Positions 11,996 through 50,888 of a stretch of 63,898 nucleotides of DNA are shown piece by piece. Origin of the DNA: Desulfobacula sp. GTDB taxonomy: Bacteria; Desulfobacterota; Desulfobacteria; Desulfobacterales; Desulfobacteraceae. Numbering within the stretch: position 1 is the stretch's first letter; each line of letters starts with the position of its first letter. The translations under genes were made by a program, and so were the position numbers. The notes beneath the pieces are model-generated. The model saw only the letters and a list, made by a program, of their open reading frames with translations, searched no databases and was not told where the DNA came from. The DNA lies in NCBI GenBank assembly GCA_018702715.1, contig JABIYQ010000120.1:1-63898 (forward strand), written 5' to 3'.

Positions 11996-12197
11996 AAAGA
12001 ACTTTTAACTATTTTGATAGTGAAAAGAAAAATTATAATAAAAATCAATTTGACTCCGCATGGTTAGTCAAAAAAATTCAATAACATAACCGAATAAAAG
12101 TCAACCTAATTTTTAACAGGGTACTTCATATGAAACTTGACCGACGATGGGTTCCATTAAATATTTCAAATCGACTGATCAAGGCTCAAAATTAATT

Positions 12198-28993: not shown

Positions 28994-29443
28994 TCAATCG
29001 AACAACTTAAAGGCATCTGAGGGCGACTCTACAACTCTCTTGAGTTTCTCTTCCATATCCTTTTTCCAGGCCTGGTCCTTTTTCCTCCACGCCCCTTCTA
29101 TTTTTTCAACCAGATCATCTATTTCACAGGGTTTTGCGAGAAAATCGTATGCGCCCATACGGAGTGCTTCTATGGCAGATTCAACTGAACCGTGGCCCGT
29201 AAGTAGAAGTGTTTCAGTAAAAAGACCCAGGTTTTTGATCTTCTTTAAGGTAGCGATGCCATTCATTCCCGGCATTTTCAAATCAAGGACAATGACATCA
29301 AAATTCTCTTTTTCAAGAGCTTTTATGGCGCTTTCTCCGTTGTAAACGGCAGTAACCTTGTACTGTCTGTTTTGAAGCAGTTTGGCCATGTTGTCAGCAA
29401 ATATTTCTTCATCATCCACCAATAAAATTTTACTTCCTATCAT
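28994..29443 (-). CDS. Single-domain response regulator
   Basis: VDDE, 'VLDLKMPG', LTGHG, 'DFLAKPC'. Confidence 0.93.
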   Translation of the reverse strand: MIGSKILLVDDEEIFADNMAKLLQNRQYKVTAVYNGESAIKALEKENFDVIVLDLKMPGMNGIATLKKIKNLGLFTETLLLTGHGSVESAIEALRMGAYDFLAKPCEIDDLVEKIEGAWRKKDQAWKKDMEEKLKRVVESPSDAFKLFD

Positions 29444-29508
29444 GATGTATTCTCCTATAATTTATGTTTGTTAAAACAGTTAATGCTTCAGTACCTTTAT
29501 TATCAGGT

Positions 29509-31227
29509 TTAACCGTGTTTCATTAGATCCCCGGGTGGTTCAAACGGAAAGGTCAGAGTGAAGACAGTCCCTTTACCCATCTCACTTTGAATTTGAATGG
29601 TGCCGCCAAGTTGCTTTACGATGCTGTAACAAATGGAGAGTCCGAGGCCTGTGCCTTGTCCCACAGATTTTGTGGTGAAGAACGGATCAAAAATTTTCCC
29701 AATGTCTTTGGTTTTTATTCCGCTTCCCGTATCCTCCACTGTAATGTCGATGCCTTTGTTGTCAGTTGACAGGCAAGTGGATAGGGTTATCATGCCATGG
29801 CCTTTGTCTTTATGGGCATCTATTGCATTGTTGATAAAATTCAAGAACACCTGCTGGAGCTGTGACGGATCAGACAGGATGGGTGGAAGGCTGTCATCCA
29901 GCGAGGATGTGAACTCTATCCCGTCTGATCTGGCTTCCCTCTCCATAAGGGTGATCACTTCTATTAGAAAACGATTGATGTCCACAGTCTCGATGACAGA
30001 CCGGGTTCTGCGGGCAAACTTTAAAAGGTTTCTTGTAATATGTTTGCATCGAAGCACCTGTGTGCCTATCTGGTTAAGTGAATCGATAAATTGTTCTCCC
30101 AGGGTTTCATCTGTTATGGCCGTTCTTTTTTCTGCGTCTAACAGAAGCTGACGTTCGGTCATGATAATGGCCAGGGGATTGTTTATTTCATGTGCGACGC
30201 CTGCAGAAAGCTCTCCGATGGATGCCAGTTTTCCGGCCTCCATGAGCTGATTGTTCATCCCTTCAACCTCAAAGTCTCTTTTTTTGATAACAAAAATCAT
30301 ATGGCGGGTTATGAATATGGTAACAACAAGGATCATCAGTGCGCTAAAATGTAGTGATACCAGGGTTGCCCTGTTAGCATGCCCCACCTCCACAAAGAGT
30401 TCTTTCTCGTCAACGCTCACCACCAGGAGCCACTTTGGATCTTTCAGCCAGGTTTCGCAGACAATTTTTTTCCGGGTCTTCTCATCTTTGTCAAATGCTT
30501 CAAGAAACCTGAATTCCAAACCATCATGAATGTCACCTTCAAATGCCGGGGCCTGCATCATAATCTTTCCACCTGAACCGGGACTGGTCTGATAGATCCC
30601 CTGGCTGTTTAAAATATAGACTTCTCCGGTCCTGCCGATCCTTACATCCTCCACCAGGGAACAAAAACTGTCTGTATTGACAGTGGCTCTCAATATCCAG
30701 CGCCTTTTGTTTTCCTTTTTTATGACGGCCATTACAAAATGGGGTTCTTTCCTGAATCCCATAAACATGTCACTGGTATAACTTCCCTTTTCCATAACTT
30801 CTTTGAACCATAATGTGTTGGAATAGTTTTTATCTATCAGATCGTAAGGCCCCACATAAGCCAGGTGATCTCCATTTTCATCTATGATGCCGATATCGGT
30901 CAGGGTCCAGGAATCACTATTGACACTTTTTAAAATCTGGCTGAGATTATCATTCTTTGTCAGGGAGACTATTGAATGAGTACTGACGATGAAGTCGAGT
31001 TTGGCTCTGTTTTCCTTCAGGAAAAGTTCTATAATTTTCTTGTGGTACTCCACTCTGGTCTCAAGTGTTTTCATCATCCGTTCCTTGGCAAACCTTGAGT
31101 AATGGATATTGATTGCCCATCCGGCAAGGAGAAGGGGAACAAGAGAGCAGATCATGGTGAGAACAATAAACCTGCGGAAGAGACGGGAATACTGTTTATT
31201 TTTTCTGGTTTCAAGGTCTTGATCCAT
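29509..31227 (-). CDS. Cache-type sensor histidine kinase
   Basis: Paralog of 25613; 'GVAHEINNPL', 'NNAIDA', 'DTGSGI', 'GTGLGL'; ATG 31227 follows AAGGAGG. Confidence 0.94.
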   Translation of the reverse strand: MDQDLETRKNKQYSRLFRRFIVLTMICSLVPLLLAGWAINIHYSRFAKERMMKTLETRVEYHKKIIELFLKENRAKLDFIVSTHSIVSLTKNDNLSQILKSVNSDSWTLTDIGIIDENGDHLAYVGPYDLIDKNYSNTLWFKEVMEKGSYTSDMFMGFRKEPHFVMAVIKKENKRRWILRATVNTDSFCSLVEDVRIGRTGEVYILNSQGIYQTSPGSGGKIMMQAPAFEGDIHDGLEFRFLEAFDKDEKTRKKIVCETWLKDPKWLLVVSVDEKELFVEVGHANRATLVSLHFSALMILVVTIFITRHMIFVIKKRDFEVEGMNNQLMEAGKLASIGELSAGVAHEINNPLAIIMTERQLLLDAEKRTAITDETLGEQFIDSLNQIGTQVLRCKHITRNLLKFARRTRSVIETVDINRFLIEVITLMEREARSDGIEFTSSLDDSLPPILSDPSQLQQVFLNFINNAIDAHKDKGHGMITLSTCLSTDNKGIDITVEDTGSGIKTKDIGKIFDPFFTTKSVGQGTGLGLSICYSIVKQLGGTIQIQSEMGKGTVFTLTFPFEPPGDLMKHG

Positions 31228-31314
31228 GCTGCCTCCTTTATGTGCGGGTTTGGATACGTTTATGTGTGCAGTTAAAAATTTGTACCAATCCACACTGCGT
31301 TTATGGATAGATTA

Positions 31315-31329
31315 TCAATAAGTATGCCA
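31315..31329 (-). promoter_or_regulatory. Sigma54 -24/-12 promoter (operon 31227 to 27561)
   Basis: TGGCATACTTATTGA. Confidence 0.68.
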
Positions 31330-31535
31330 AAGGGTTTTCTCTTGTTTATGTTTTATTAACTATCTGAAATTTAAGCGTTTATTTTGAAACTATAGGAATA
31401 AAAAAATGAATGGCTTTAAAGGGTTGTCATCGGAGAGGAGACAGGGGTGGAAATTGCCATATGACAGATTGGCTGGTTTTTAAAATTATCTTTTTAAAAT
31501 ATGTTTTAATTATGCTTGTTTTGCAACATTAGGGT

Positions 31536-33899
31536 TTAAAGAACCTGCCAGTACTTTTTATGGATTTTAATGACCTTTTTGAGGTTTGCCAGACGGCTGA
31601 GGTCGCTTGTGCGGATACGATCTATCTTTTCCTGGTTTACTTCCTGAACATTGCAGATTTCTTTCATGACAGCAAGGCCGCATTCCTGAATACCTTTTAT
31701 ACTATACCCCCCTTCCATGACAAAGGCCATCTTCCCTCTTGTAGAATGTTCGGCTATCTCGAGGAGAAGGGCGGTTATCTGGGCGTAACCGTTTGGTGTC
31801 ACTTTCATGCCTGCCAGGCGGTCGTGAATATAAAGGTCAAACCCGAAAGAAACAAGAATCATTTGGGGCTTGTACTCCTGTGCAACAGGCCCTGCAATGA
31901 AATACAGAGCCCTTCCGATGTCCCTTGCCCGGCTTCCTTTTTCCAAGGGAATGTTAATGGTGAAGCCTTCTCCCTTGCCCTTTCCAGTATCTTCAACCCT
32001 GCCTGTTCCGGGATAAGAGTTTGACTCATGAATTGAGATAAAAAGAACTTCATCCGTGTCATAAAAAACTTTTTGTGTACCATTACCATGATGAGCATCG
32101 ATATCGATTATCATCAGCTTTGAAACCTTGTACCTGTGTTTCAAATACCTTGCGCCCAGGGCAATGTTGTTGAAAATACAAAATCCCATACCCTTTCCAG
32201 GACCGGCATGATGGCCCGGAGGTCTTATAAATGCAAAACCTCTTTGTGATCTGCCTTGTATTATCTCATCAACCAGAGAAAAAACACCGCCTGCCGCAAG
32301 TCTGGCCGTTGACCATGATTCTTCCGTGGTCTGGGTGTCAAAATCAAGAGAAGAAAGACTTTTCCCGGCTGTTTTTGCAACTTGCTCAACATACTCAAAT
32401 GTGTGCACCCATGCCAGTTCATCTTTCCTGGCAAAGCGGGGCACAATTTTAGACCATTTTCCAACCAGGCATCTGTTTTCCAGTAGATTCTCGATTATTT
32501 TTATACGCTTGTAATTTTCAAGATGTGTAACCCCCATGAGATGATTTTGGTATCTTTGATCAATTACAACGGCAACGGGAAGGGGAATTGATTTTTCATC
32601 ATGATCCGTTTCCACCCGGCCAAAGGCTTTTGCAAGGGCAAGCAGCACTTCTCCCTCTGGAATACTGCCGGCATTTTTAAGGAGTAACCGCACCGTTGTA
32701 CGGCCTAAAAGATTTGAACTGGCAGGATGAAGCGCTATTTTTATGAATGCAAGGGCGCTCTTGCACTGTCTGTTTGCATTTTTTCTTTGTTTGAGAAATT
32801 TTATTTGTCCGGGAATTTTTTTGCATAAAAGATTCGTGATGGAGGGGTGTGTATGTGTTGAGAATGCTTCCATTGCCGCTATTGTAGTTAAAAGACTCCC
32901 CTCTGGAGATTGAAGTATGTATCTATGCGGTCCCCTGGCGTGGAATCCAATGGATTCGTAAAATCCTTTTGATTCAATTTCTGATTCAAGCATGATCTCT
33001 TTTACATCAGGAAAGTGGCTTTTACAGAGCATCCAGACGCCTGCCATGATAAAAGACCCTGCACCTTTGACAAGATAAGGGTCGCTTTGGGAACCGGATC
33101 TTCTGCGGGTTGCAATATATTTTACTTCAATTCCCTTGTAAAATAGTTTTCTTATTGTTTCCAGGAAAACCAATCCCTGTAACTTTTTTTTTGCAATACA
33201 GGCAAAGATAAAGCTGTCAGTGCCTGATATCAGGCAGTTTAAGAGGAAGCGGATGTGGAAAAATTCCAGATTGAGACGGGCAGCCTGATAAAGGCTTTCC
33301 CGGGAGAACGGGAACCCCACGAAGAAGGCTCTTGTATAATCGCTTATTACCCCTTGGAAAAGTATTCGGGGATCATCCTCAGACGTATTGAAATCATTTT
33401 GGTCGGTGCAGCAGTTTTTTATCTCTTCAAGTCGTTTGAGTCGTTGCTTAAGCAGATTGACCAAAGGACTTTCACTGGCCTTGTTTTCTTTTTGAAGCAT
33501 TGCTGAGATCTGTTGTTCAAGTTGTTCAGAAGCCAGATCGATTTCATAATTGAGCATTAGTGAAAGGCCTGCTGTATCGGTTTTAAGCGCATGCTTTCCA
33601 GGCGTTGCTGTGGGTTCCCTGTGGAGCAGGTTGCTCTTTTCGGCTATTTCTCCATAATGAATAAGCAATGCCTGTTCAATTGGCGGCGTACCGCTGATGA
33701 AAAGCTGGACCTTGTTGACCCATACTTTTTTGTTGCCAAAAAAAAAGTATGGGCTTTTTTCGTCCCGGGCTTCTTGTGCAGAAGGTACATCTATCCTTCC
33801 CTTCCCCAACATGGTATTCATGGTATAGGCAATTTCAGGTGCTCTTTTAGCGATAGCATCTATGGCCTGTTTGATATTTTCCCGTGTCAGCATCATCAA
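31536..33899 (-). CDS. GNAT-like domain fused to a Zn-dependent deacetylase (HDAC/AcuC family)
   Basis: C-terminal HDAC motifs RPPGHHA, GFCIFNN, DIDAHHGNGTQ, YPGTG, GFD, EGGY; central GNAT-like 'EVKYIAT...KGAGSFIM...IMLES...GFYESIGF'. Confidence 0.85.
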   Translation of the reverse strand: MMMLTRENIKQAIDAIAKRAPEIAYTMNTMLGKGRIDVPSAQEARDEKSPYFFFGNKKVWVNKVQLFISGTPPIEQALLIHYGEIAEKSNLLHREPTATPGKHALKTDTAGLSLMLNYEIDLASEQLEQQISAMLQKENKASESPLVNLLKQRLKRLEEIKNCCTDQNDFNTSEDDPRILFQGVISDYTRAFFVGFPFSRESLYQAARLNLEFFHIRFLLNCLISGTDSFIFACIAKKKLQGLVFLETIRKLFYKGIEVKYIATRRRSGSQSDPYLVKGAGSFIMAGVWMLCKSHFPDVKEIMLESEIESKGFYESIGFHARGPHRYILQSPEGSLLTTIAAMEAFSTHTHPSITNLLCKKIPGQIKFLKQRKNANRQCKSALAFIKIALHPASSNLLGRTTVRLLLKNAGSIPEGEVLLALAKAFGRVETDHDEKSIPLPVAVVIDQRYQNHLMGVTHLENYKRIKIIENLLENRCLVGKWSKIVPRFARKDELAWVHTFEYVEQVAKTAGKSLSSLDFDTQTTEESWSTARLAAGGVFSLVDEIIQGRSQRGFAFIRPPGHHAGPGKGMGFCIFNNIALGARYLKHRYKVSKLMIIDIDAHHGNGTQKVFYDTDEVLFISIHESNSYPGTGRVEDTGKGKGEGFTINIPLEKGSRARDIGRALYFIAGPVAQEYKPQMILVSFGFDLYIHDRLAGMKVTPNGYAQITALLLEIAEHSTRGKMAFVMEGGYSIKGIQECGLAVMKEICNVQEVNQEKIDRIRTSDLSRLANLKKVIKIHKKYWQVL

Positions 33900-35683: not shown

Positions 35684-36193
35684 TCAGCCATACATGATAA
35701 TGACACAGAACAGCAGGGCAGCAACCCACACTGTGTGGCTTACCACACCCTTTTTGACGGGATTAAAACGGGCATCAAAACAGTTATGCCCGTTTACACA
35801 TTTAAACCGGACACTTTTGTTTTTGTCTATATTTTTTTTGTTGCCATAATTTATTTTGATTCGTTTGGTGGAAGCCCCGCAAACAATTCCTTCCTGGTTT
35901 TTCCTCATACATGTCAACCTTGAGGCGATCATGAAGCTGACCAGATTAAAGATGTGGTTCCATGTCAGTGCCATGATGAAAAAAGACAGGAAAAACATCA
36001 GCATATGAACTTTTGTAACCCCCATGGCCGCCAGAGAGGCTCCGATGTTTCCCGGCGTAAGTGGTCCTTGCACATTACCAAAAAGTCCAAGATAATATAG
36101 AAAAAATGATGCACCCATTACAATCAGTGACAACCCAACGCTCTGTGCACGTTTCCGGAAGTAGTCGTTCTTTGTGAATGTGTTGCCGTTCAT
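35684..36193 (-). CDS. Hypothetical 3-TM membrane protein with a Cys/His-rich loop
   Basis: AGGAG RBS; loop 'LTC...IVCG...FKCVNGHNC'. Confidence 0.7.
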   Translation of the reverse strand: MNGNTFTKNDYFRKRAQSVGLSLIVMGASFFLYYLGLFGNVQGPLTPGNIGASLAAMGVTKVHMLMFFLSFFIMALTWNHIFNLVSFMIASRLTCMRKNQEGIVCGASTKRIKINYGNKKNIDKNKSVRFKCVNGHNCFDARFNPVKKGVVSHTVWVAALLFCVIIMYG

Positions 36194-36246
36194 ATCACAT
36201 CTCCTTTTAAAAAATACTTTAATTTCCCATAACGGCTAATTATCTT

Positions 36247-36268
36247 CCCTCCCCGTTTCCGGGGAGGG
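36247..36268. terminator. GC-rich hairpin after the TSUP gene
   Basis: CCCTCCCCG-TTTC-CGGGGAGGG. Confidence 0.5.
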
Positions 36269-36325
36269 CATTATATTAAACAGATATGAGACTCAATAGA
36301 TTTCCATATCCGCATTGGACTTTCA

Positions 36326-37369
36326 TCAACCGCCAGCCAGTTTCTTGTAGATGCTGGGAACTATCTTGTAGAAGCAAATGGCTGCTACAACAAGGCAGTA
36401 ACCCGGCACAACGATTTTCCATAGCTTTTCAGGAAAAACCCTTGTCATATAAGGTGCTGCAATGGCAGAAAACATGGTTGCAAGCATAAAGGAAGGCAGC
36501 ATGATATAGTCTATCTGAACACCGCTTGTCAAAAGGCCCAGCCATATAATAATAGCAAAAGTGCTGACGGTTCCTTCACAGATTGCAGTTACGGCAAGCA
36601 TACTTTTAACCGGCACGCCGGACAAAAGACCGCCGATGGTAACAACAGGACCGTACCCGCCGCCGCCAACGCCCTTGTTAAATCCTGCCAGGGCTGCAAA
36701 ACCAATCATTTTATTGGGTTTGTAGGGCCTGTCTTTTTTAGCGCTCCAGAGCGATACGACACCCATCATCACGAGCAGGATTGCCACATAGAGTTTGATC
36801 CAGACTTTATCGATGGGGAAATACTTGTAAATACCGATGATGGAACATGATACTGCAATACACCCCGTCACCGCTATGATAATCCAGAGTTTTACGGTTT
36901 CAGACATGGGGGAAAATTTCCACTCCACGTTTTCAAATTCCCTGTGAAGAAAGGCACCCACAAGACCAGCCATACCCTGTTGAATCATGACAGCCGGTAC
37001 GATCTGTTTGGGATCAAATCCCAGTACAAGCAGGATGGGGGTTAAAGCCGTTCCAAATCCCATGCCTGCAGATGCATCCATGAATTCAAAAAATGCCGCT
37101 AAACCGACCACACTCCATATAATCATCCAGTCATTTCCCTGGAGCCCATTGGCAATTGTCCAGTCAGACTGTATCCTTACCGTGGCTTCAAAGGGATTTC
37201 CCGCAAGCCAGACACCTAACAGAAAAACCAGGAAAAAGACAAATATGCCTCCCAGGGCAGCACGAATATGACGCCACTCCGGGATAAAACGCTCTACAAT
37301 GGTTTGTTTTTCTTTTTCCAGGTCATGGGCCACTTCAAAACCGGTTATTTTTTTTTTAGCTTTTTCCAT
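36326..37369 (-). CDS. TSUP (TauE/SafE) family sulfur-oxyanion transporter
   Basis: Two Gly-rich repeats 'DASAGMGFGTALTPIL' and 'KGVGGGGYGPVV'; about 9 TMs. Confidence 0.88.
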   Translation of the reverse strand: MEKAKKKITGFEVAHDLEKEKQTIVERFIPEWRHIRAALGGIFVFFLVFLLGVWLAGNPFEATVRIQSDWTIANGLQGNDWMIIWSVVGLAAFFEFMDASAGMGFGTALTPILLVLGFDPKQIVPAVMIQQGMAGLVGAFLHREFENVEWKFSPMSETVKLWIIIAVTGCIAVSCSIIGIYKYFPIDKVWIKLYVAILLVMMGVVSLWSAKKDRPYKPNKMIGFAALAGFNKGVGGGGYGPVVTIGGLLSGVPVKSMLAVTAICEGTVSTFAIIIWLGLLTSGVQIDYIMLPSFMLATMFSAIAAPYMTRVFPEKLWKIVVPGYCLVVAAICFYKIVPSIYKKLAGG

Positions 37370-37646: not shown

Positions 37647-39062
37647 TTACTCTCTGAAATCATTGGCCTCTATCAGCGATTCTTTCATTAGCCGATGGAG
37701 ATATTGTCTCTGTATCCCCGCAATTTGCGCTGCCTTGCTGATGTTTCCGTGGCTTCCCTCTAATAAGGTCCTGATATAGTGTTCGTGGAAAAGCTGGATG
37801 TTTTCTTCTTTGGCATTTTTGAAATTCATAATGGAATTTCCCCCGTTCAACTCAGGGTTCAAACCGGAGTTCAATTGGGGCATGAAACTTTTTTCCGGGC
37901 CGGAAAGGCCCAGATCGGAGAGGGTCAGCGTATCTCCGGTACAAAAAATTATTCCCCGTTCAATGACATTTTCAAGTTCACGTACATTGCCGGGAAATTG
38001 TCTTGCTGTAAGCGCCTGTATGGCAGTGGGTGCTATCCCCTTAATTTTCTTTCCGTTCAATACACAATGTTTGTTGAGAAAGTGGTAGCAAAGTAGCGGA
38101 ATATCCTCGGCTCTGTCCCTTAGGGGAGGTATTTCTAAACGGATGACGTTCAGGCGGTAAAACAGATCCTCCCGGAATGTATTTTCCCTTATGGCCTGCT
38201 CAAGATTTTTGTTTGTTGCCGCAATGAACCGCAGGTCTGCCTTTTTGGTTATTACGCTTCCTACTGGTCTGTATTCCCCTTCCTGAAGCAGCCTGAGAAT
38301 ACTTGTCTGGAGGCCGAGCTTCAGGTCTCCGATCTCATCGAGAAAAAGGGTGCCTCCGTTTGCCTCTTCAACCAGTCCCCTCTTGTCTGTGGTTGCGCCT
38401 GTAAATGCACCCTTCACATGTCCGAACAACTCACTTTCGATCATATTCTCCAGAATTGCCGTACAGTTTATGGTAACCATTTTTTTTGACCTTCTATTGC
38501 TGTTCTGATGGACAGCTCTTGCCACAAGCTCTTTGCCCGTTCCCGTGGGACCGGTTATAAGAACGGTTCCAGATGTGGGAGCAGCCTTGCGGATATGGTC
38601 AAAAACTTTTGCCATGGTAGTTGTCGAGCCGATTATGGCAAGGTCATTCTTTTTTTCCAGGGCTTTGCGCAGTTTCCTGTTCTCCCGGACGACCTTCTGC
38701 CATTTCATGACCTTGTCAAGTGTTAAAAGAAGCCTTTCCCTGCGGAAAGGCTTTGTCAGATAGTCATCTGCTCCTTTTTGAGTTGCTTCCACGGCAGTCT
38801 CTATTGTGGCATAGGCAGTGAGGATAATGACGGACACGTCGGACCGGATCTCTTTTATCTTTTCCATCAGGCTGATCCCGGACATACAAGGCATTTTCAG
38901 GTCTGTCATCACAAGGTCAAAATCTTCTGCTTTGAATATTTCAAGGGCCTTTTCAGGGTTGCTCTGTGTGACAGTCTCATAATGGGTATCTTCTGAAATA
39001 ATCCTGTCAAGCAGTGTCAGCATATCTTTTTCGTCATCAACTATTAAAATACGTCCGTTCAT
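37647..39062 (-). CDS. Sigma54-dependent response regulator (REC-AAA+-HTH), EBP2
   Basis: 'MTDLKMP', [20 protein letters not shown], 'FPGNVREL', '[17 protein letters not shown]'. Confidence 0.96.
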
Positions 39063-39071
39063 TCTTCCTCC

Positions 39072-41255
39072 TTAGGATATCATCATCAGTTTGACTATAA
39101 AAACAGTACCACTGGATACAGAATCAACTGAAGAATGCTTCCGGCTTTCACATTCCATAATTCCACCTAAGCCGGTTATAATGCCATAACTCACAAAAAG
39201 TCCCAGCCCGGTTCCTCTGCCTGTAGCTTTGGTAGTGAAAAAAGGTTCGAATATATGGTCAATGTCTTTGTCCTCTATTGCAATCCCTTCATCTTTAAAC
39301 CGAACAACAACCATGTGAAGATGAGAGTCCATAAATGTTTGAATTGTCAATCTTCCGCCCTGGGGCATAGCGTCGACAGCATTGTTTATAAGGTTGAGAA
39401 AAACCTGCTGCAGCTTTCTAAAATTTCCTATTACAAGTGGAATTGTGTCCAAAAGATCCATGGACAAGGAGATTCCCTCTTTTTTAATGCGGTGGGTTAC
39501 AATTTTGATGGCATCTTTTATACAGAGGTTCAGATCTGTCTGTTGGTGGCCATTGTCTTCTCCCGTGTGTACAAAACCCAAAAGGTTTTCCACGATCTCT
39601 TTGCAATGAAGCCCTTGGCGTTCTATTATTTTAAGGTCTTTATAATCCTGGGAGGTGTTGTCTCTTTTCCGCAGCATAAGGTCACAGAACCCCAGTATAA
39701 CCCCAAGCGGATTGTTGATTTCATGGGCTACCCCTGCGGACAGTGTGCCCAGGGAAACTAATTTTTCAGTGTGTATCAGATGGCGTTCAAGTTTTTTGTC
39801 TTCGGTTATGTCCCTTGCAATGCACAGGACCCAATGTACATTTTCCTTTTCACTTCGCACAGGCACCATATTGGCAGCTAAAAATATCTGGGTGCCGTCA
39901 AGGTCAAACCCGGATTCATCTCTGATACTTTTTCCGCTTTCAAAAACCCTGGGGATAAGACCTTCCAGCTTGTCACTCAATTCTTTTGGGAATAGCGATG
40001 ACAGTTCTTTTCCTATATGATCGTCAGCCCTGGATTTGAAAAAATTGGAAGTAAAGCTGTTCATGGACTGGAATTTGCCCCTGGGGTCAACGGTGAAGAT
40101 GAAGTCTTCAGCGCTTTCCACAAGGGATCGGTATTTGGCTTCGGATTTTACGAGCTCCTCCGTCTGCCGGCTGGCCTCATTCTCCATCCGCCTGGACCAT
40201 TTTACTTCAAAAAACATGATAATTGAAGCGCCTGCAATAATGGCGAATATCACGGCAAGCTGCACGAAAAATTGATCCATGTATTTATTTTTGATGGCTT
40301 CTTCTATTTCAAAAACAGGAGCGACAACCGCTATGGACCACATATGAGTCGGGATTTCTGAAATCGTTACAGGGGTGTATGCGATCAGCTTTTCCATCCT
40401 GCCTGTAAGTCCCCTGTGCCATCCTGAAACATACCACCCTGTCCCTTCTAAGCCCGTTAGCATTTCATCTCTTTGTATCTTGTTTATCTCCACAAAAGAA
40501 ATGTCATGATCTTTTTCTTTTCTTGCCAGAAAAGCATTTTTACCGACAAATGAGCTGTCCGGATGAAAAAGAAAATGGCCTTCATTGTCGATGATCCATG
40601 CATACCCTGTCTTTCCGGATCTTATGTTCTTAAGGTAAGGGTCCAGGAACCATGAAATATTGACATGACAATAAATGATTCGTGAATCACTTTGGCCGAC
40701 AGGTGACCTTATTGTTATAAATATTCCAGACGATGTGATTTGGGGCTTTGAGACTCTCAGTTGATTAGTTTTTTCCAGATCAAAATCAAAGGGAAGAAAA
40801 GAGCTCTCTTCAAGGAGAGAACGGGAGACCTCTTTGCGGAAGGGGTGACCGGAATAAAGGATTCCGGCTTCCATGTCGTGAAATTCGATGGCACTGACGC
40901 CGCATTCAACTAAGCGGACCAGTGTTGACCTGATTGCCCTGTAGGGATCTTTGTAATTTTCAAGCTCTTTGGAAAGAATTCTCATTTCCCGCTTTAAAAA
41001 GGAGAATTCTCTCTCAATGAAGTTTTTAACGTTGTGCGCAATAACCATCTGCTCTCCATTAAACTGACCGCGCACGATCTTGCTCATCTCCCTGATGGAC
41101 CACTGGGACATCACTGCACTTGCCGCCACAAAGATGAGCGCTGTAAGTGTCACGATGATTACAATGCTTTTTTCAGTTTCAGGTCGCTGGTGCCTGTGGA
41201 CAGGTTCATGGCTGGAACTGAGTATTATGCCTGTATCTGATTTTTTCAAAACCAT
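39072..41255 (-). CDS. Sensor histidine kinase (Cache-PAS-HisKA-HATPase)
   Basis: 'GKTGYAWIIDNEGHFLFHP', PAS 'YRSLVESAEDFIFTVD', 'GVAHEINNPL', 'GTGLGL'. Confidence 0.94.
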   Translation of the reverse strand: MVLKKSDTGIILSSSHEPVHRHQRPETEKSIVIIVTLTALIFVAASAVMSQWSIREMSKIVRGQFNGEQMVIAHNVKNFIEREFSFLKREMRILSKELENYKDPYRAIRSTLVRLVECGVSAIEFHDMEAGILYSGHPFRKEVSRSLLEESSFLPFDFDLEKTNQLRVSKPQITSSGIFITIRSPVGQSDSRIIYCHVNISWFLDPYLKNIRSGKTGYAWIIDNEGHFLFHPDSSFVGKNAFLARKEKDHDISFVEINKIQRDEMLTGLEGTGWYVSGWHRGLTGRMEKLIAYTPVTISEIPTHMWSIAVVAPVFEIEEAIKNKYMDQFFVQLAVIFAIIAGASIIMFFEVKWSRRMENEASRQTEELVKSEAKYRSLVESAEDFIFTVDPRGKFQSMNSFTSNFFKSRADDHIGKELSSLFPKELSDKLEGLIPRVFESGKSIRDESGFDLDGTQIFLAANMVPVRSEKENVHWVLCIARDITEDKKLERHLIHTEKLVSLGTLSAGVAHEINNPLGVILGFCDLMLRKRDNTSQDYKDLKIIERQGLHCKEIVENLLGFVHTGEDNGHQQTDLNLCIKDAIKIVTHRIKKEGISLSMDLLDTIPLVIGNFRKLQQVFLNLINNAVDAMPQGGRLTIQTFMDSHLHMVVVRFKDEGIAIEDKDIDHIFEPFFTTKATGRGTGLGLFVSYGIITGLGGIMECESRKHSSVDSVSSGTVFIVKLMMIS

Positions 41256-43783: not shown

Positions 43784-46468
43784 TTATTCCATATTCATAT
43801 TGTTAAATTCAATGGTCAACTCATATTCAGTGCCACCCACAACTCGATGAGCGACAAATCCCAGCTTTTTCCCAAGCTTCTGCATCTGGGTGTTTTCCGG
43901 CAGCACAAGCCCCATCACCTGTTTTATGCCCTTATTTTGAGCCGCTTTAAGGCATTGCTTCAACAGTGATGCACCAATGCCTTTCCCCTGCCATTCATCG
44001 CTTATGGCCATGGCAAATTCTGCATGGGTCCCCTCGGGATAATCGATGATCCGGCATACCCCGACTATTTTTTTGTTCCGGCCTTCTCCAAACACTGCCA
44101 CAAGAGCGATTTCACGATCATAATCCACCTGGGTAAATTTTATCAGCATGCTTTTGGAAAGTTGTTTTAACGGCGAGAAAAACCGCATATACACGCTTCT
44201 TTTAGACAGAGAATAAAAATGATCGATCAACAGGTCTGCATCACTGGGCCGGATAGGGCGGATAAAAAAATCATGCCCGTCCACAGTGGTATCCCTTGAT
44301 TCATAATGCCAGGGATAGGAACTGATAATCAGATGCATGGGAGAGGGTATTTGTGCCGGCGCAATAAGAACCCGTGCATCCACTGCCGTTATATTGCCGC
44401 CCCTCACCATGAGCGGATTAATATCCAACCCGATAATTTCGGGAAAGTCCGTCATCAGCCTTCCTGTCCGTATCAATAATTCTTCCAGAACTGCCATGTT
44501 GACCTTTGAAATATTTCTGAATCCTTTTAATATCTTTGATATTTTTGTTTTTTCAATCATCTGCCTTGCAAGAAGACGGTTCAACGGCGGAAGCCCCATT
44601 GACGTGTCCTGGAGTACCTCGGTTAAAATGCCCCCCATACCAAAAAGAATCACAGGTCCGAAAATATCATCTTTTTTTGCGCCAATGATTAATTCAACCT
44701 CTGCCGCAGGCAGCATTGCCTGGACGGATACCCCCTTAATGTCGGCATCCGGCGCATAGTCCCCGGCATTTTTCATTATCCTTCCATATGCGGCTTTGAC
44801 CTCATTGGAACCTTTGAGATTAAGGGCAACCCCGTTGCAGTCTGATTTGTGCAGAATGTCTTTTGAACAAATCTTTAGAACAACAGGAAAACCCATTTGT
44901 TCTGATATTTTTACGGCCATTTCTTCAGAATCAGCAATCCTAGTGGGGTTTGTGGGAATTCCATATGAATGAAGCAGATCCTTTGCCGTTGTTTCCATAA
45001 GGCTTGCCTCATCCCTGGCAATTGCCTCTTCAATGATATATTGGGCTTTGGTCCTGTTGATAATAAGTTTGGTATCGGTTCTGATGGGTATTTCATGAAG
45101 CATTTCAATATTTCGACCGTATTGATAAAGGTTTTTAAAGGCCCTTACGGCCCGCTCGGCTGAATCATAGGTCACAATACCGACCTGGTTAAAATGCTTT
45201 CTTGCCGCATCAACATTCTCTCCTCCGATCCAGGCCGTAAAAACAGGACAGGGTACAGTTTTTAAATACTGAGCAAGACCTTTTGCCAGGTTCAGGGTAT
45301 CCATTGTACCTGCTGGGGCGCACATCAGGAGAAGGGCATTAGTTTCAGGCGCATTTGCACATATTTTCGCGGTTTCTATATATGCCTCAGGGCTTGTATC
45401 CCCCAGTATGTCTATAGGGTTGCCTTTGCTCCAGTTTTCAGGAAGCAGCTTGTCCAGTTGTTCAAGTGTTGCCTGACTGAGTTCCGCAGGTTCCATTCCA
45501 TGGGATGCAAGGGCATCTGCTGCCATGACCCCTGGACCGCCTGCATTGGAGATAATAGATAAGCCGGGACCGGATGGACGACGCTGTTTTGCCAGAAATT
45601 CCGAACAGTCAAATAATTCTTCAAATTCATTGACCCGTAAAATCCCTGCACGCTCAAAAGCAGCGTCGTAAACCGCATCTTCACCGGCCATGGCACCGGT
45701 ATGGGATGCGGCTGCCCGGGCCCCGGCTTTTGATCTGCCCGATTTGAGGACAATAATGGGCTTCAGACGTGAAACCGCTCGGGCAGCACTCATGAAATTT
45801 CGAATATGGGTGATATTCTCCATATACATGACAATACTTTCCACAGAATACAAAGAGCCCAGATAATCAATCATATCTCCGAAATCAACATCCATCATGG
45901 AACCTAAACTGACGAAATGGCTGAAACCCACATTTTCACGATTGGCAATATCCAGAACTGAAGTGCAAACGGCGCCACTCTGGGATAGAAATGCAATTTT
46001 TCCGGGCAAGGGTGGCAAATGGGCAAAGCTGGCATTTAAATCGATCCCTGTATTCACTATGCCAAGGCAGTTGGGTCCGATAATTCTCAGGTTATATTTC
46101 CTGGCTTTTTCCAGTATTCGGGCTTCAATCTGTTGTCCTTTTACGCCTGTTTCCCTGCCGCCTGAAGACACGATAACGGCGCCTGCAAGACCGGCCTTGC
46201 CGCATGACTCAACAATTTGGGGTATCATCTGTATGGGTGTTGCAATCACTGCCATGTCAACGCTGGATACGATGTCCTGGATATCGGCAGATGCCCCGAG
46301 CCCCATGATATCCTTGCGTTTTGGATTAACCGGGAAAATTTCGCCTTTGAAATCACTGGTTACAAGATTCTTCATAATTGAAAACCCGACAGAACCTTCT
46401 TTTTCACTGGCACCTATCACTGCCACGGATTCCGGGTTAAAAATTCTGTGCAAATTGATTGTGCTCAT
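43784..46468 (-). CDS. pat: Pat-type protein: NDP-forming acyl-CoA synthetase-like domains plus C-terminal GNAT
   Basis: 'PESVAVIGAS', 'GPNCLG', 'SQSGA', 'ASHTGA', 'NPIDILGD', ATP-grasp 'HKSD', 'DINPL', GNAT 'WQGKGIG'. Start at MSTINL (46468). Confidence 0.92.
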   Translation of the reverse strand: MSTINLHRIFNPESVAVIGASEKEGSVGFSIMKNLVTSDFKGEIFPVNPKRKDIMGLGASADIQDIVSSVDMAVIATPIQMIPQIVESCGKAGLAGAVIVSSGGRETGVKGQQIEARILEKARKYNLRIIGPNCLGIVNTGIDLNASFAHLPPLPGKIAFLSQSGAVCTSVLDIANRENVGFSHFVSLGSMMDVDFGDMIDYLGSLYSVESIVMYMENITHIRNFMSAARAVSRLKPIIVLKSGRSKAGARAAASHTGAMAGEDAVYDAAFERAGILRVNEFEELFDCSEFLAKQRRPSGPGLSIISNAGGPGVMAADALASHGMEPAELSQATLEQLDKLLPENWSKGNPIDILGDTSPEAYIETAKICANAPETNALLLMCAPAGTMDTLNLAKGLAQYLKTVPCPVFTAWIGGENVDAARKHFNQVGIVTYDSAERAVRAFKNLYQYGRNIEMLHEIPIRTDTKLIINRTKAQYIIEEAIARDEASLMETTAKDLLHSYGIPTNPTRIADSEEMAVKISEQMGFPVVLKICSKDILHKSDCNGVALNLKGSNEVKAAYGRIMKNAGDYAPDADIKGVSVQAMLPAAEVELIIGAKKDDIFGPVILFGMGGILTEVLQDTSMGLPPLNRLLARQMIEKTKISKILKGFRNISKVNMAVLEELLIRTGRLMTDFPEIIGLDINPLMVRGGNITAVDARVLIAPAQIPSPMHLIISSYPWHYESRDTTVDGHDFFIRPIRPSDADLLIDHFYSLSKRSVYMRFFSPLKQLSKSMLIKFTQVDYDREIALVAVFGEGRNKKIVGVCRIIDYPEGTHAEFAMAISDEWQGKGIGASLLKQCLKAAQNKGIKQVMGLVLPENTQMQKLGKKLGFVAHRVVGGTEYELTIEFNNMNME

Positions 46469-46542
46469 TATTTTTCCTTTCAGTTTTTTAAAAAAAACAG
46501 TCCAGCGTATATGGTGGGTCAAAATAATTGAATCATTCTGTG

Positions 46543-47472
46543 TTACGGCCCCAGCCACACCGTCATTTCTCTTGCCCCATGAATCACTTTCCAGGGGATA
46601 CGGCCAATATCAAAATCAGCCACATCAGATTTGCCTTTTCTGCCAAATACAATGGTGTCACAATTTTCTTCCCTGGCTGCTTCAACAATTGCCTCGGCAC
46701 GACTTCTGGCGCCTTGAATGATTTTTTTCACCATATTCTTTTTTTGAATACCTGCAGTTTCAAAGGTTTTTTCGGCATCCCTGATCACTGTTTCAATCTC
46801 TTCAAAGGCGGTTTTGATAAATCCGAGGGATTTTTTTTTCTTTTTTTCACTATAGAGATCAAAATCCCTGAGCACGCTGCACAGGACAACTCTGCAATCT
46901 GAGTTTCCAATGGTTTTAGCGGCAAAATCAACCGCCCTTTTTGTCCCTTTGGACCCATCAATGGCAAGGAAAAGAGAATGATTAACCGGTTGTGTTCCTG
47001 CCAGTATCACGGGGAGGTATTTTGTTTTTTCGATCAGTTTTGTTGAAACACTTCCCATGACAAGGGACACTAATACCTGTGCCCCTCCTCTTCTCCGGAT
47101 CAAAAGGGCATCATATCCTTTCCGTGCTTCATCCATGATATCCCTTGCTATCCCCTTATTTCTTTCTGTAATGACAGAGTTGACAGCTTCCGGCCGGAAA
47201 CCTGCGGCAATGAGTTTCTTTTTTGCTTTTTCCATGAAAGCTTCCATTTTGACTCGATATTCATATTCCCATTCTTTTACCTGCAGGGTCGCTGTATACG
47301 GGGACGTTTCTTTTTTAAAATCGAAATAACATTCCGGAACCCGGGTGATGATATTATGTAAAACAAGTTCCTTTTTGAGAAACGGTTCAAAACTGCAGAG
47401 GTATTGAATGGTTTTAAACGCTTTTTTTGATCCATCCAGAGCCACAAGAATTTTGCTTATATTTTCAGACAT
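46543..47472 (-). CDS. Tandem-domain universal stress protein
   Basis: 'ILVALDGS...MGSVSTK' and 'LAIDGS...IVFGRKG'; ATG overlaps the upstream usp stop. Confidence 0.88.
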   Translation of the reverse strand: MSENISKILVALDGSKKAFKTIQYLCSFEPFLKKELVLHNIITRVPECYFDFKKETSPYTATLQVKEWEYEYRVKMEAFMEKAKKKLIAAGFRPEAVNSVITERNKGIARDIMDEARKGYDALLIRRRGGAQVLVSLVMGSVSTKLIEKTKYLPVILAGTQPVNHSLFLAIDGSKGTKRAVDFAAKTIGNSDCRVVLCSVLRDFDLYSEKKKKKSLGFIKTAFEEIETVIRDAEKTFETAGIQKKNMVKKIIQGARSRAEAIVEAAREENCDTIVFGRKGKSDVADFDIGRIPWKVIHGAREMTVWLGP

Positions 47473-47959
47473 ATTCTTCTTTCCTTTTAAATATTTTTCG
47501 ATCTCTGACACTGACAAGCGGTACCATGGAATGTCTAAACACCTTTTCGGCAGCGCTGCCGAAAAATACTCTTGAAATATTTCCCCGGCCTTTGTTGGCC
47601 ATTACAACCAAATCAATATTTTCTGTTTGAACCGTTTTTAAAATTTGTTCAGAAGGAATACCCACGTCAAACTTAAAGCTGATATTTGATTTTTCTTCAA
47701 AAAAATGTTCTTTTATCAGTCCTTTTATCTCTGTCTCCCTGTCTTTTTTCAAATCCTTGATATAACCCTCGACACTTATCCGGCTTGATGCATATTTATT
47801 GGCGATTTCAACCATATGAACCTCTTTCTGGTTAATAACGTTATAGACAACAACCTGGATATTTGAATTTTTTGCCAGTTCAACTGCATACTCCAATACC
47901 ATCAGGGTATAATCAGAAAAATCAATGCAGGCCAGTATTCTATCTATTTTCTTATCCAT
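47465..47959 (-). CDS. Universal stress protein
   Basis: 'ILACIDFS', 'DLVVMANKGRG...FFGSAAEKVFRHS'. Confidence 0.92.
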   Translation of the reverse strand: MDKKIDRILACIDFSDYTLMVLEYAVELAKNSNIQVVVYNVINQKEVHMVEIANKYASSRISVEGYIKDLKKDRETEIKGLIKEHFFEEKSNISFKFDVGIPSEQILKTVQTENIDLVVMANKGRGNISRVFFGSAAEKVFRHSMVPLVSVRDRKIFKRKEEYV

Positions 47960-47994
47960 TTCATAACTCCTCTATACTTTTGTACACATTTTTA

Positions 47995-48672
47995 TCAATA
48001 GATCTTCCTGAATCCCCGTGTTAGATCTGCTGCAAAAAGCAGCTCGCCCACCCCATGAAATTTTTCGGACAGGCTGTCAAAACTTGAAGGATCAATATCA
48101 AATGTATGGAAAAACACTTTTCTGTACCCTTCTTCAATATCGTCATAGGATGTCATGATACTGCATAGCCTGCCGCCATGTTCCCGGATGATATCCGTTA
48201 AAATATTGATAATACCGGGCCTGTCCTTCAGGTTAAATGCAAAGATCTGTCCTTTTTTAGAAACGCCTGTAAAGGATACAAAGCAGCGGAAAATATCGCT
48301 TTTGGTGATAATCCCCACCATCGTGCCCTTTTTATCAAGTACAGGCATCCCGGATATTCCTTTTTTCAACATAATTTCTGCAGCTTCATCAACAGTATGA
48401 TCATCCCCGATGGTGACAACGGGCTTGGACATGACAGATTCAATCTTAACTTTATCCATTAAGGAAGGCATTTCAAATCTATCCAGCGTTGTGGCATCAG
48501 AAGGTGTGGCGTTTTTAACATCCCCGTCCGTTAAGATCCCGACAAGCTTTTTGTTGTTTAGCACGGGAAGCATGGAAATTATTCTTGTTTGAAATAATTT
48601 TATAGCATCATTCAAAGAGTCGTTATCATCTATGGTAATTACGGACTTGCTCATCCATTCTTTTATCAACAT
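47995..48672 (-). CDS. acuB: AcuB-like CBS-CBS-ACT protein
   Basis: 'MLIKEWMSK', 'LVGILTDGD...ATPSDATTL', 'VGIITKSDIF', ACT 'DRPGII...IIREHGGRL.SI'. Confidence 0.82.
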   Translation of the reverse strand: MLIKEWMSKSVITIDDNDSLNDAIKLFQTRIISMLPVLNNKKLVGILTDGDVKNATPSDATTLDRFEMPSLMDKVKIESVMSKPVVTIGDDHTVDEAAEIMLKKGISGMPVLDKKGTMVGIITKSDIFRCFVSFTGVSKKGQIFAFNLKDRPGIINILTDIIREHGGRLCSIMTSYDDIEEGYRKVFFHTFDIDPSSFDSLSEKFHGVGELLFAADLTRGFRKIY

Positions 48673-48713
48673 TTTGACCTCCAGTATTTTAGGTGTTGTT
48701 CACCATAAAGCGT

Positions 48714-49205
48714 TTACCTCTTGAATATCAATTTGTCCCTGACACTGACCACGGGAACCGGGGAATGTCTGAACACCTTTTCAGCAACGCTTCCAAATAA
48801 AAATCTTGAAATATTCCCCCTGCCTTTGTTGGCCATTACCACTAAATCGATTTCTTCTGCTTCAATGGTGTTCAGGATACATTCAGAGGGGATACCTCCA
48901 TTGATTTTTATTTCCATTATAGACGCGTCATGAGCAAAATTTTCTTTTATCAATTGTTTCAAGCCCTCATGCCTTTCTTCTGTCAGCTTCATGACGTACT
49001 CTTGCGTATCACACTCATTGATATAATATCCGGGGAAATAACCATTCGCCATGTCAACGCCATTGATATCCCTCTGATTGATGACGTTTAAAACCACAAT
49101 CCGGGCGCCTGTTTTTTTTGCAAACTCCAAAGCATATTCAAGGGTTATCAGCGAATATTCTGAAAGATCGATACAGGCCAGAATTTTATTTATTTTTTTA
49201 TCCAT
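48714..49205 (-). CDS. Universal stress protein
   Basis: USP motifs; close paralog of 50391 and 47465. Confidence 0.92.
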   Translation of the reverse strand: MDKKINKILACIDLSEYSLITLEYALEFAKKTGARIVVLNVINQRDINGVDMANGYFPGYYINECDTQEYVMKLTEERHEGLKQLIKENFAHDASIMEIKINGGIPSECILNTIEAEEIDLVVMANKGRGNISRFLFGSVAEKVFRHSPVPVVSVRDKLIFKR

Positions 49206-49224
49206 TATCTATCTCCTTTAATTA

Positions 49225-49296
49225 TTAATAGATCATCTTAAATCCCCGTGGCAGACCTGCCACATAAAACAACTTCCTTTTTTCATGGGATTTTTT
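49225..49296 (-). pseudogene. 3' relic of an acuB paralog in the usp leader
   Basis: Reads KKSHEKRKLFYVAGLPRGFKMIY* versus AcuB EKFHGVGELLFAADLTRGFRKIY*; no in-frame start downstream of the promoter. Confidence 0.75.
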
Positions 49297-49318
49297 TACC
49301 CGCTGCTTTAGGATTTTA

Positions 49319-49333
49319 GCAATTGCCGTGCCA
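49319..49333 (-). promoter_or_regulatory. Sigma54 -24/-12 promoter (usp-acuB-usp-usp-pat)
   Basis: TGGCACGGCAATTGC (full consensus); class A motif at 49440-49456. Confidence 0.85.
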
Positions 49334-49708
49334 TAGTCTTATCAATTATTAAAAGCATTGCCCAATCAGCATCTGAGCTGTTAAAGCCTGCAAAAAAACA
49401 ATGCCCCATTGTGAATGATCAAACAAAATATTTTCAACCTGTAAAAAAAGCTGACACAGGTTTCAGATTTAATTCATCAGGGATAAATGTCATGGTCCTT
49501 TATCCTGATTTTCAACAAATTTATAAGATGTGACTGTGTTGAGGCAAAAGAGATCAGAGTAAACCCTAACATTAGGGTAAATTAAGTTGGCAGTTTGATT
49601 TTGAAAAAATAAAGCAGCCAGGCGCGGCCTTTAGAATATTTTATAATTTCTTCTTCAATACAGTGATCCTCAAGTATAAAGATTTTAAAACGTACCGGAT
49701 TAGTACAG

Positions 49709-50389
49709 CTAATCAGCGGAAAGATCATTATTATTTAATCCAAACCGCAACCATTTAAAATCTTCCCGGTTTTTTTGGGGAACCTTTTGTCCCACTCGTA
49801 CCATCAAGAAATTTTCAGGTTTTAGACAGATATTGGGTTCGTTTGTCCGGGATGCTGTGAATCTGAAACCCGTGTAAAGATTCATGAGCATATTTCTATA
49901 GGCCTGAACGCTTAGTCCTGAATAATGAAGATCCCATGTCCATGAACAGGCAGTGAGATAGACGATTTTTTGCTCTAATTGGGGATCACTGAAAAGATGA
50001 GATAAAAGGCGTTGTGCAATCCCATGATTTCTAAATTCCCTTAACACCTCAACTGCTTTGAGCTCCTTAATATTATTTTTCCCTAACCTTGCCCATCGCT
50101 CTTTTGAATTCGGGTAATCAAGGACGGCAAAACCGATGATGGTTTTGTTAGCCAAAATGGCAAGCGCAATACTTCCGCCGTTTTTTACAAAGTGTTCAAG
50201 GGTCTTTCTTTTAGTATAGATGGATCGATACCGTTCATGGCTCTTGAAATCAGAAGCTAAGATTAATTCCTGAATACGATCAAGAGTTAATTTTGACTCA
50301 ATGCTAACTATGCCTTTCTTTGTCTCAATACATTCGCTAATTGCTTTTCTCCATAAAAAATGGTCATGGTAATTTTGATCTCCAGGCAT
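49709..50389 (-). CDS. acuA: AcuA-like GNAT acetyltransferase
   Basis: 'YP...ERW...IKELKAVEV..EFRNHGIA...SWTWDL...YR.ML...TNEPNI...PENFLMVRVG' parallels Bacillus AcuA; ATG 50389 directly after the usp stop. Confidence 0.78.
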   Translation of the reverse strand: MPGDQNYHDHFLWRKAISECIETKKGIVSIESKLTLDRIQELILASDFKSHERYRSIYTKRKTLEHFVKNGGSIALAILANKTIIGFAVLDYPNSKERWARLGKNNIKELKAVEVLREFRNHGIAQRLLSHLFSDPQLEQKIVYLTACSWTWDLHYSGLSVQAYRNMLMNLYTGFRFTASRTNEPNICLKPENFLMVRVGQKVPQKNREDFKWLRFGLNNNDLSAD

Positions 50390-50390
50390 T

Positions 50391-50888
50391 TCAGTCCTTT
50401 CTTTTGAATAACATTTTATCCCTGACACTGACAACCGGAACAGGAGAATGTCTGAATACCTTTTCAGCAACGCTTCCAAATAAAAATCTTGAAATATTCC
50501 CTTTGCCTTTGTTGGCCATTACGATTAAATCAATTTCTTCTGATTCAACCGTTTTAAGGATACATTCAGAAGGGATACCCGCACTGATCCTTGTTTCTAT
50601 TATGGGCACTTCATTAACAAAATTTTCTTCTATTAATTGTTTCAAACGCCCCTGTCTTTCTTTTGTCACCTCCATGACGTATTCTTCGGCATCAACCCCA
50701 TTTGCATAATATCCGGGGGAAAACCCATAAACCATGTCAATTCTATAGATATCCCTTTGATTGATAACATTTAAAACCATAATTTGAGCCCCTGTTTTTT
50801 TTGCAAGCGCCATAGCATACTCAAGTGTTATTAAAGAATATTCTGAAAGATCAATACAGGCCAAAATTTTATGTATTTTTTTATTCAT
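50391..50888 (-). CDS. Universal stress protein
   Basis: USP motifs; close paralog of 48714. Confidence 0.92.
   Translation of the reverse strand: MNKKIHKILACIDLSEYSLITLEYAMALAKKTGAQIMVLNVINQRDIYRIDMVYGFSPGYYANGVDAEEYVMEVTKERQGRLKQLIEENFVNEVPIIETRISAGIPSECILKTVESEEIDLIVMANKGKGNISRFLFGSVAEKVFRHSPVPVVSVRDKMLFKRKD

Follow-up and report, generated by a model that had tools for sequence, protein, structure and literature searches.

A GNAT-fold domain and a predicted zinc deacetylase on one chain in Desulfobacula: a candidate acetylation switch encoded behind a histidine-less sensor

Can a single bacterial protein hold both an acetyltransferase and the deacetylase that would undo its work, and what would then control the two? 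The question is raised by a gene on a 63,898-nucleotide stretch of DNA from Desulfobacula sp., a marine bacterium of the sulfate-reducer type (assembly GCA_018702715.1, contig JABIYQ010000120.1), hereafter called the window, in which a GNAT-fold domain and an HDAC-like domain follow one another in one reading frame. An earlier, sequence-only reading had considered this protein alone; the conserved unit is larger, and comprises a membrane sensor of the histidine kinase type lacking its phospho-acceptor histidine, the GNAT module and the deacetylase. Both folds, conserved active-site residues, a one-to-one pairing of the two halves and a fixed gene order characterize this unit. We tentatively read it, at slightly less than even confidence, as a reversible protein-lysine acetylation switch whose acetylating half is controlled by the upstream sensor. 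What is new about it is the fusion, the separate GNAT family and the sensor without a histidine; activity, substrate and control are predicted.

Positions 31536-33899 of the minus strand form one uninterrupted open reading frame (ORF), in which every motif quoted in the sequence-only reading was found. The length of 787 amino acids given there, counted from a TTG at 33899, needs correction: the protein likely has 785 residues, because most relatives start at the ATG at 33893 (third residue of the 787-aa ORF) and an AGGA lies 6 nt upstream of this codon, overlapping the stop codon of the sensor gene. Residue numbers used here follow the 787-aa count. Two public DNA contigs, possibly the window's own source, span the ORF without any difference. 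An assembly artefact was considered for the fusion and rejected, since relatives share the architecture and the two contigs span the ORF. Contigs from 3 of 4 RNA runs cross the sensor-fusion junction, in runs where DNA may be present; the share of the locus in the RNA runs is small (0.07-0.16) and positions 29500-31875 are covered by no RNA-run contig. The closest named relatives are proteins of Desulfobacula and other Desulfobacterales (about 70% identity), PF00850 is present in 37 of 58 homologues, and the fusion as a whole matched no NCBIfam family. To the domain layout proposed earlier we add a helical domain at residues 333-425, which separates the GNAT and HDAC domains.

According to a confident structure model, residues 177-332 have a GNAT fold. 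The model, covering residues 1-435, reached a predicted local distance difference test score (pLDDT) of 94 and a predicted template modelling score (pTM) of 0.92. The Foldseek matches listed were GNAT-type entries (best E 4e-4), and VIA structural matches over residues 177-350 had Z 8.9-11.1 for 50 rows, with root-mean-square deviations of 2-4 Å over 90-158 residues and 141 chains at Z of at least 8. The titles of a few VIA entries do not name the fold, which we assume to be GNAT. Searched against the Protein Data Bank (PDB), a profile of the GNAT domain returned 15 matches (best E 0.0013), of which 14 bear the name of an acetyltransferase and one that of a transcriptional regulator; a profile of the whole module returned weak matches only, chance ones to leukocidin and TIM sequences included. 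Acetyltransf_10 was matched at E 0.1 or better in 32 of 35 family members. When a homologue (P0053) was looked up in the Atlas, the feature matches were to unnamed clusters and stayed below 0.9; the structural matches were to GNAT clusters and to two clusters of family length, unnamed or deacetylase. The sequence-only reading had placed the GNAT at residues 225-330; domain parsing by the model upheld the fold in this middle region and moved its start to near residues 177-190.

The most conserved polar residues of the module fall in the GNAT domain. E258 is found in 83 of 84 aligned relatives, and G279, G281, E307 and Y314 in all 84. Y314 aligns with the tyrosine of the 'FYE' motif in solved GNATs, which we take to be the general acid, and E258 presumably occupies the position of the catalytic glutamate of GCN5. 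The ratio of nonsynonymous to synonymous substitution (dN/dS) in four close pairs was 0.11-0.22 for the GNAT domain, 0.08-0.18 for the deacetylase and 0.08-0.26 for the N-terminal domain; together with the invariant polar residues, these values make both halves look constrained. The N-terminal domain matched no library family and has conserved columns among relatives; it is a candidate input or partner surface.

The second half, residues 441-787, is predicted from fold and motifs to be an intact class II-like zinc deacetylase. Pfam Hist_deacetyl (PF00850) matched residues 459-746 with E 1e-87 (294.5 bits for a cut-off of 27.9), and the HDAC fold was recovered with template modelling scores of 0.81-0.87 to single HDAC domains. 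The hallmarks of classical HDACs, as given in the accessible part of PMC11532494, are a double histidine, GFC, Asp-His-Asp zinc ligands and the tyrosine of xGGY. All defining motifs are present (H563/H564, G572-F-C, D601/H603/D693 and Y732), and the catalytic residues are invariant in all covering rows (39-42 of 43 linked deacetylases, the rest being cut). The catalytic set assigned earlier to residues 440-787 therefore stands in its motifs and its Hist_deacetyl match, except that the aspartate of 'GFD' is likely not the third zinc ligand. This role likely falls to D693, which aligns with the aspartate of the HDAC6 'GDP' motif, presumably the third ligand there.

The closest solved sequences are HDAC6, HDA15 and the bacterial HDAH (E 1e-50 to 1e-57 per domain), and the acetylpolyamine amidohydrolase 9gkz is a far weaker match (E 2e-32). 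With HDAH/HdaH (PDB 5g0x, 1zz0), placed in cluster 1 in the accessible part of PMC11532494, the protein shares the fold and all catalytic motifs, whereas the linked deacetylases form a clade of their own tied to the GNAT module (support 100 by the Shimodaira-Hasegawa-like approximate likelihood ratio test, SH-aLRT, with 5 outgroup rows). They also depart from HDAC6, having His-Leu/Ile/Met-Glu for its His-Pro-Glu and mostly Asp-Arg where it has Asp-Pro. These comparisons bear on a small amine, polyamine or similar, as the substrate that the pair would acetylate and deacetylate for transport or detoxification. Such a role would suit the transporters around the locus and the many small-molecule enzymes among the GNAT fold matches; we hold it to be very improbable, given that the deacetylase scores best with HDAC6, HDA15 and HDAH and that a conserved arginine (D693-R694) lies at the inferred rim, described as acidic in polyamine enzymes in the part of PMC11532494 at hand. 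A protein substrate is preferred in what follows. The second deacetylase of the Desulfobacula genome (L003, G000:C117:10501-14106) has 436 amino acids with a Cys-rich tail, and is flanked by a hydantoinase/oxoprolinase gene and a class II tRNA-synthetase-like gene. Four Desulfobacterales genomes (L177-L180) encode Usp-Usp-deacetylase fusions of 665-736 amino acids, another regulated-deacetylase layout.

The possibility that the fusion was unique to this assembly, raised in the sequence-only reading, was dispelled by the relatives, many of which are fused and others split. By profile search, this is a small family hardly found outside Desulfobacterota. Of 1.84 billion representative proteins, the module profile retrieved 102, and none of them linked the module to another GNAT family at E 0.001. 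The module was found in 3 of 401 genomes of a phylum sample and 34 of 351 of an order sample, where one match at E 5e-4 was dropped. One JGI and one NCBI record of the family carry a GNAT name. The 47 genome loci comprise 24 fusions, 20 in which the deacetylase gene comes directly after the module and 3 truncated at a contig end (24, 19 and 4 by BLAST). For the metagenomes, the best 80 of 103 loci comprise 25 fusions, 44 pairs of neighbouring genes, 9 cut loci and 2 in which a CBS gene separates the halves. The two sets overlap, and kin are not independent. A single polypeptide is thus not required, since the halves are separate neighbours in 20/47 and 44/80 loci. GlnD, GlnE and RelA/SpoT likewise unite opposing activities on one chain, with a chemistry unrelated to that of the fusion, and the pair described here is often split. 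The single-chain switch of the GlnD/SpoT kind suggested earlier thus keeps the fused architecture and the constraint on both halves in its favour, and has the split loci against it. In a concatenated tree of 37 rows, fused and split forms were separated by one change (support 89); in a rooted deacetylase tree of 58 rows, fused forms were basal and 3-4 changes were required. Both were quick trees with SH-aLRT support only, and from them the fusion is likely ancestral and fission later. Desulfospira joergensenii carries a fused member (P0022).

The sensor gene ends 2 nt before the ORF. Its product matched dCache and HATPase_c domains and gave no HisKA match in the library scan; Ser344 aligns with the histidine of the intact kinase encoded downstream, and the HATPase_c domain retains the N, G1 and G2 boxes, in a form more degenerate in the window's clade. 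A gene of this type precedes the module in 44/47 genome loci (2 cut, 1 remnant) and 65/80 metagenome loci (14 cut, 1 without it). The phospho-histidine is absent from 39 of 40 covered genome loci and from 84 of 93 distinct sequences, while 118 of 119 rows have Asp or Glu at position +4. In the order sample, where the scan scored only 7 candidates per genome, the top 27 matches of a pseudokinase profile (at least 251 bits; the next 239) all lay directly upstream of a module. Seven module genomes had no such match: three at a contig edge, one with a broken gene and three of one genus that lost it.

Natural variants bear on the role of this sensor, with an assembly error possible in three of them (L182, L050 and G533). 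In L182, frameshifts or stops break the receiver-CBS gene, the sensor and the GNAT module and leave TauE, the deacetylase and the following kinase intact; in L050, remnants of the sensor and GNAT module accompany a remaining deacetylase and an acs gene cut by the contig end. Genome G533 has two partial copies which together make one whole sensor, module and deacetylase. L171 and L173 keep the cytoplasmic part of the sensor and have lost its dCache domain. In the genus without the sensor, where the receiver-CBS gene abuts the fusion, the N-terminal domain has about 30% identity to others instead of the usual 42% or so (one lineage). Relaxed selection on this domain after sensor loss was rejected as an explanation, its identity within the genus being 67-74%, against 68-70% for the GNAT domain. 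One protein (P0068) has a PilZ domain with RxxxR- and DxSxxG-like motifs fused N-terminally to a stand-alone GNAT module. Each case amounts to one or two events, and the variants fit the N-terminal domain as an input surface.

A known system that resembles this one is acuABC of Bacillus, in which K549 of AcsA is acetylated by AcuA and deacetylated by AcuC, itself inhibited by the CBS-ACT protein AcuB (accessible parts of PMC13121692, PMC13039410 and PMC11255334). Both have a GNAT and a zinc deacetylase in one operon and a CBS-domain protein in the unit, and acetyl-CoA synthetase (Acs) is adjacent in the split clade of the present family. There, a 658-aa neighbour passes the TIGR02188 cut-off as an acetate-CoA ligase, and a monocarboxylate transporter often comes next. 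Of 62 split loci, 30 have this ligase gene no more than about 3 kb downstream; among the remaining 32, less than 4 kb of sequence was available in 29. The acetylatable motif PKTRSGK is found in 20 of 28 Acs ORFs, the other 8 being short or cut, and PX4GK in 12 of 14 ligase matches of the Desulfobacula genome. Two near-identical loci (L095, L111) have a CBS-pair gene with an ACT-like tail between the GNAT and deacetylase genes, which is the order acuA-acuB-acuC. There are also differences. An AcuB-type protein between the halves is found only in these two loci and not at this one, the usual CBS protein being a receiver-CBS without the ACT domain that in AcuB binds AcuC; acsA is adjacent in acuABC and not in this window. 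AcuA is a single-domain GNAT, whereas the 435-aa module is multi-domain, without an outside relative at E 0.001; AcuC belongs to cluster 2c, class I-like, and the deacetylase here is class II-like. Unlike in acuABC, the halves are often fused and a pseudokinase gene lies upstream. The most likely reading is an undescribed, lineage-restricted acetylation module that would work like acuABC without being a member of it.

Taken together, these data suggest the following scheme. The GNAT domain would, with good probability, transfer an acetyl group from acetyl-CoA to a lysine of a protein, E258 serving as base and Y314 as acid, and the deacetylase would reverse this acetylation. By analogy with AcuA/AcuC, we lean slightly towards the PX4GK lysine of AMP-forming acetyl-/acyl-CoA synthetases as the target, a case that is weaker for fused members such as this one. 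The pseudokinase might relay a ligand signal by binding, probably to the N-terminal domain, instead of transferring a phosphoryl group, and the receiver-CBS protein would be a second input in most lineages; we rate this step a little short of even. Fusion would keep the pair together without being required. A further idea, which we hold to be rather unlikely, is an 'acetylation two-component system', in which the phospho-histidine of the sensor was traded for docking, so that it would toggle a fused writer/eraser and an outside signal would set the lysine acetylation of acetate-activating enzymes without phosphoryl transfer.

Several observations weigh against this scheme, beginning with the GNAT half. 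Acetyltransf_10 is weak on the window protein (E 0.0017, 22.2 bits for a cut-off of 23.6), and the fold matches tell no substrate, because toxins, N-terminal acetyltransferases and small-molecule enzymes tie in score. GNAT motif A is R/Q-x-x-G-x-G/A (PMC8556138, accessible part). In the family, both glycines are invariant and K/R stands just before them in 82 of 85, and the R/Q position is not conserved, being mostly Pro, Val or Ala behind a long insertion; an insertion-free relative (P0081) has the canonical R-x-x-G-x-G and passes the Pfam GNAT cut-off with 25.1 bits. A Pat-type acetyltransferase is encoded 10 kb from the fusion gene. On these grounds, the module may have no catalytic role and gate the deacetylase as an acyl-CoA sensor or adaptor, while Pat or chemistry acetylates the targets. 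The missing motif-A arginine, the Pat-type enzyme in the window and near two other loci (L031, L164), and the deacetylase that outlives a decayed GNAT module in L050 and L182 would agree with it, PanZ and the pseudo-HAT of O-GlcNAcase are GNAT-type precedents, and HqbA is a GNAT that reportedly acts without its transferase activity (PMC10710024). We nevertheless consider it unlikely: two invariant glutamates and a tyrosine at GNAT active-site positions are more than cofactor binding would seem to need, and a Pat-like gene accompanies only 2 of the loci examined.

For the proposed control of a catalytic GNAT by the sensor, the adverse points are of another kind. Of 93 distinct sensor sequences, 9 retain the histidine, which in 5 is followed by an acidic residue; one copy in G533 (L167) has a broken sensor and an intact GNAT module; and in one genus (L162-L164) the fusion is intact without a pseudokinase. 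The sensor could then be an operon neighbour merely inherited, exerting no control over a protein-acetylation pair. This loss with the fusion intact would be expected on such a view, as would an island full of similar dCache kinases in which kin share gene order. It is nonetheless quite improbable in our judgement, as no high-scoring sensor orthologue was found away from a module in the order sample, the sensor and GNAT module decayed jointly in two genomes, L171 and L173 keep the cytoplasmic part after dCache loss, and the N-terminal domain was selectively changed in the genus without the sensor (one lineage). The pairing of the halves calls for caution as well: the top 34 linked-deacetylase profile matches in the 351 genomes of the order sample are the 34 GNAT-module loci, and such one-to-one counts are partly circular because the profiles were built from linked members.

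The choice of target has points against it too. No acetate-CoA ligase gene was seen by any of 49 fused loci, 27 of them with at least 4 kb in view; the Acs link represents few events, because it is confined within the split clade; and no AcsA over the cut-off was found in this genome, an 82% complete assembly. The writer-eraser pair might instead act on signalling proteins of the cluster (response regulators, sigma-54 activator, kinases), as an acetylation layer on a phosphorelay island. The most constant neighbours are indeed signalling and not metabolic genes, fused loci lack Acs, and acetylation of the response regulators RcsB and CheY is reported in the part of PMC12471899 at hand. This too we take to be unlikely, since the intact kinase and regulator downstream are replaced in 12/47 and 21/80 loci, in many by Acs.

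The coordinates of the unit and its neighbours are collected in the table below.

Features of the fusion gene and its surroundings in the window
Feature	Position	Strand	Remarks
Single-domain response regulator	28994..29443	-	Follows intact dCache kinase
Intact dCache histidine kinase (HEINNP)	29509..31293	-	Downstream neighbour in 26/47 loci (12 other, 9 cut)
GNAT-deacetylase fusion gene	31536..33893	-	Likely 785 aa from ATG 33893; 787 aa from TTG 33899
Predicted Zn-dependent deacetylase, class II/HDAH-like	31539..32579	-	Residues 441-787: R559-PPG-H563-H564, GFC, D601, H603, D693, EGG-Y732
Linker	32580..32624	-	Residues 426-440; low model confidence at 433-436; split point in relatives
Helical domain after GNAT	32625..32903	-	Residues 333-425; also ends stand-alone GNAT module
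GNAT-fold domain (model)	32904..33371	-	Residues 177-332; E258, G279, G281, E307, Y314 invariant or near-invariant
N-terminal domain, mostly helical	33375..33893	-	Residues 3-175; family-specific
dCache sensor pseudo-histidine kinase, 561 aa	33902..35587	-	Ser344 replaces phospho-His; stop overlaps likely ribosome-binding site of fusion gene
TauE-family membrane protein and 169-aa protein	35684..37369	-	Recurrent upstream, 52 and 53 of 142 loci
Cache-PAS histidine kinase and sigma-54 response regulator	37647..41255	-	Recurrent further upstream

A receiver-CBS gene precedes the sensor in 26/47 genome and 32/80 metagenome loci. The 169-aa protein (35684-36193, minus strand), usually found right after TauE, has hydrophobic segments and a tail containing Cys; neither Pfam nor NCBIfam matched it. 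Upstream of TauE, none of 45 loci showed a sigma-54 promoter pattern. In one fused clade (L020, L171, L172), the genes after the module encode a second TauE, a 228-aa protein of no recognized family and an 866-aa PPDK_N/PEP-utiliser protein. The unit lies in a dense island (17868-41255, with another part at 56801-62642) of dCache kinases, single-domain regulators and anion transporters (DASS, TauE, Na/Ca exchanger-like). The Pat/PatZ-type protein (43784-46558, minus strand) has 924 amino acids, with acyl-CoA ligase-like domains and a C-terminal GNAT; the histidine of its 'SHTG' motif is presumably the ligase phospho-histidine. Pat-like genes also occur near the module in L031 and L164. A run of Usp-like genes (46543-50888, minus strand) surrounds a 225-aa CBS-pair protein (47995-48672) with an ACT-like tail, 38% identical to the gene inserted in L095/L111 and hence a candidate AcuB-like protein; it and the Pat-type gene lie 10-14 kb from the fusion gene. 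At 4636-13445 (minus strand), genes for two binding proteins, an ABC transporter and a member of the phosphodiesterase family resemble a phosphonate/phosphite uptake system as read from sequence, only the phosphodiesterase having been scanned.

How do these features compare with described proteins? In the type III bacterial protein acetyltransferases (cAMP-, ACT- and NADP-GNAT), as presented in the accessible part of PMC8556138, the GNAT is preceded by a candidate regulatory domain, as here; they differ in that the N-terminal domain of the present family matches no library family. None of the five GNAT types in that part includes a deacetylase, and the words fused, fusion and bifunctional do not occur in it. 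No GNAT-deacetylase fusion was found in the accessible main text of PMC11532494, and nothing on GNAT-HDAC fusions in that of PMC11254643. Supplement file 5 of PMC11532494, in its accessible part, holds 7 acetyltransferase-named UniProt entries with a deacetylase domain, for instance A0A0M3QEY7, and two more entries, named only deacetylases, whose domain position fits the family. The UniProt fusions have a C-terminal deacetylase domain in common with ours, starting at about 260 or 610-660 instead of about 460, on a comparison of layouts only. No study of the family was found in the literature searched, most subscription journals being outside its coverage. The earlier statement that no characterised GNAT-HDAC fusion was known thus holds as regards characterisation, with the addition that UniProt annotates further fusions of this kind. 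Signalling by partner binding in a kinase-like protein, as proposed here, has a precedent in DivL of Caulobacter (PMC12471899, accessible part); DivL acts on DivK and CckA, whereas the sensor described here carries a dCache domain and would have an acetylation enzyme as its output.

Desulfobacterota are major oxidisers of acetate and fatty acids in marine sediments. How a writer and an eraser are kept from cancelling each other was only recently answered in Bacillus, where AcuB inhibits AcuC (accessible parts of PMC13121692 and PMC13039410). The family described here may offer another solution in Desulfobacterota, with both activities on one chain and the input from a pseudokinase or a receiver-CBS protein. 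It would provide one purifiable protein for the study of reciprocal control, along with natural split and input-loss variants for comparison. If the link to the pseudokinase is true, a sensor kinase scaffold would here have acetylation as its output.

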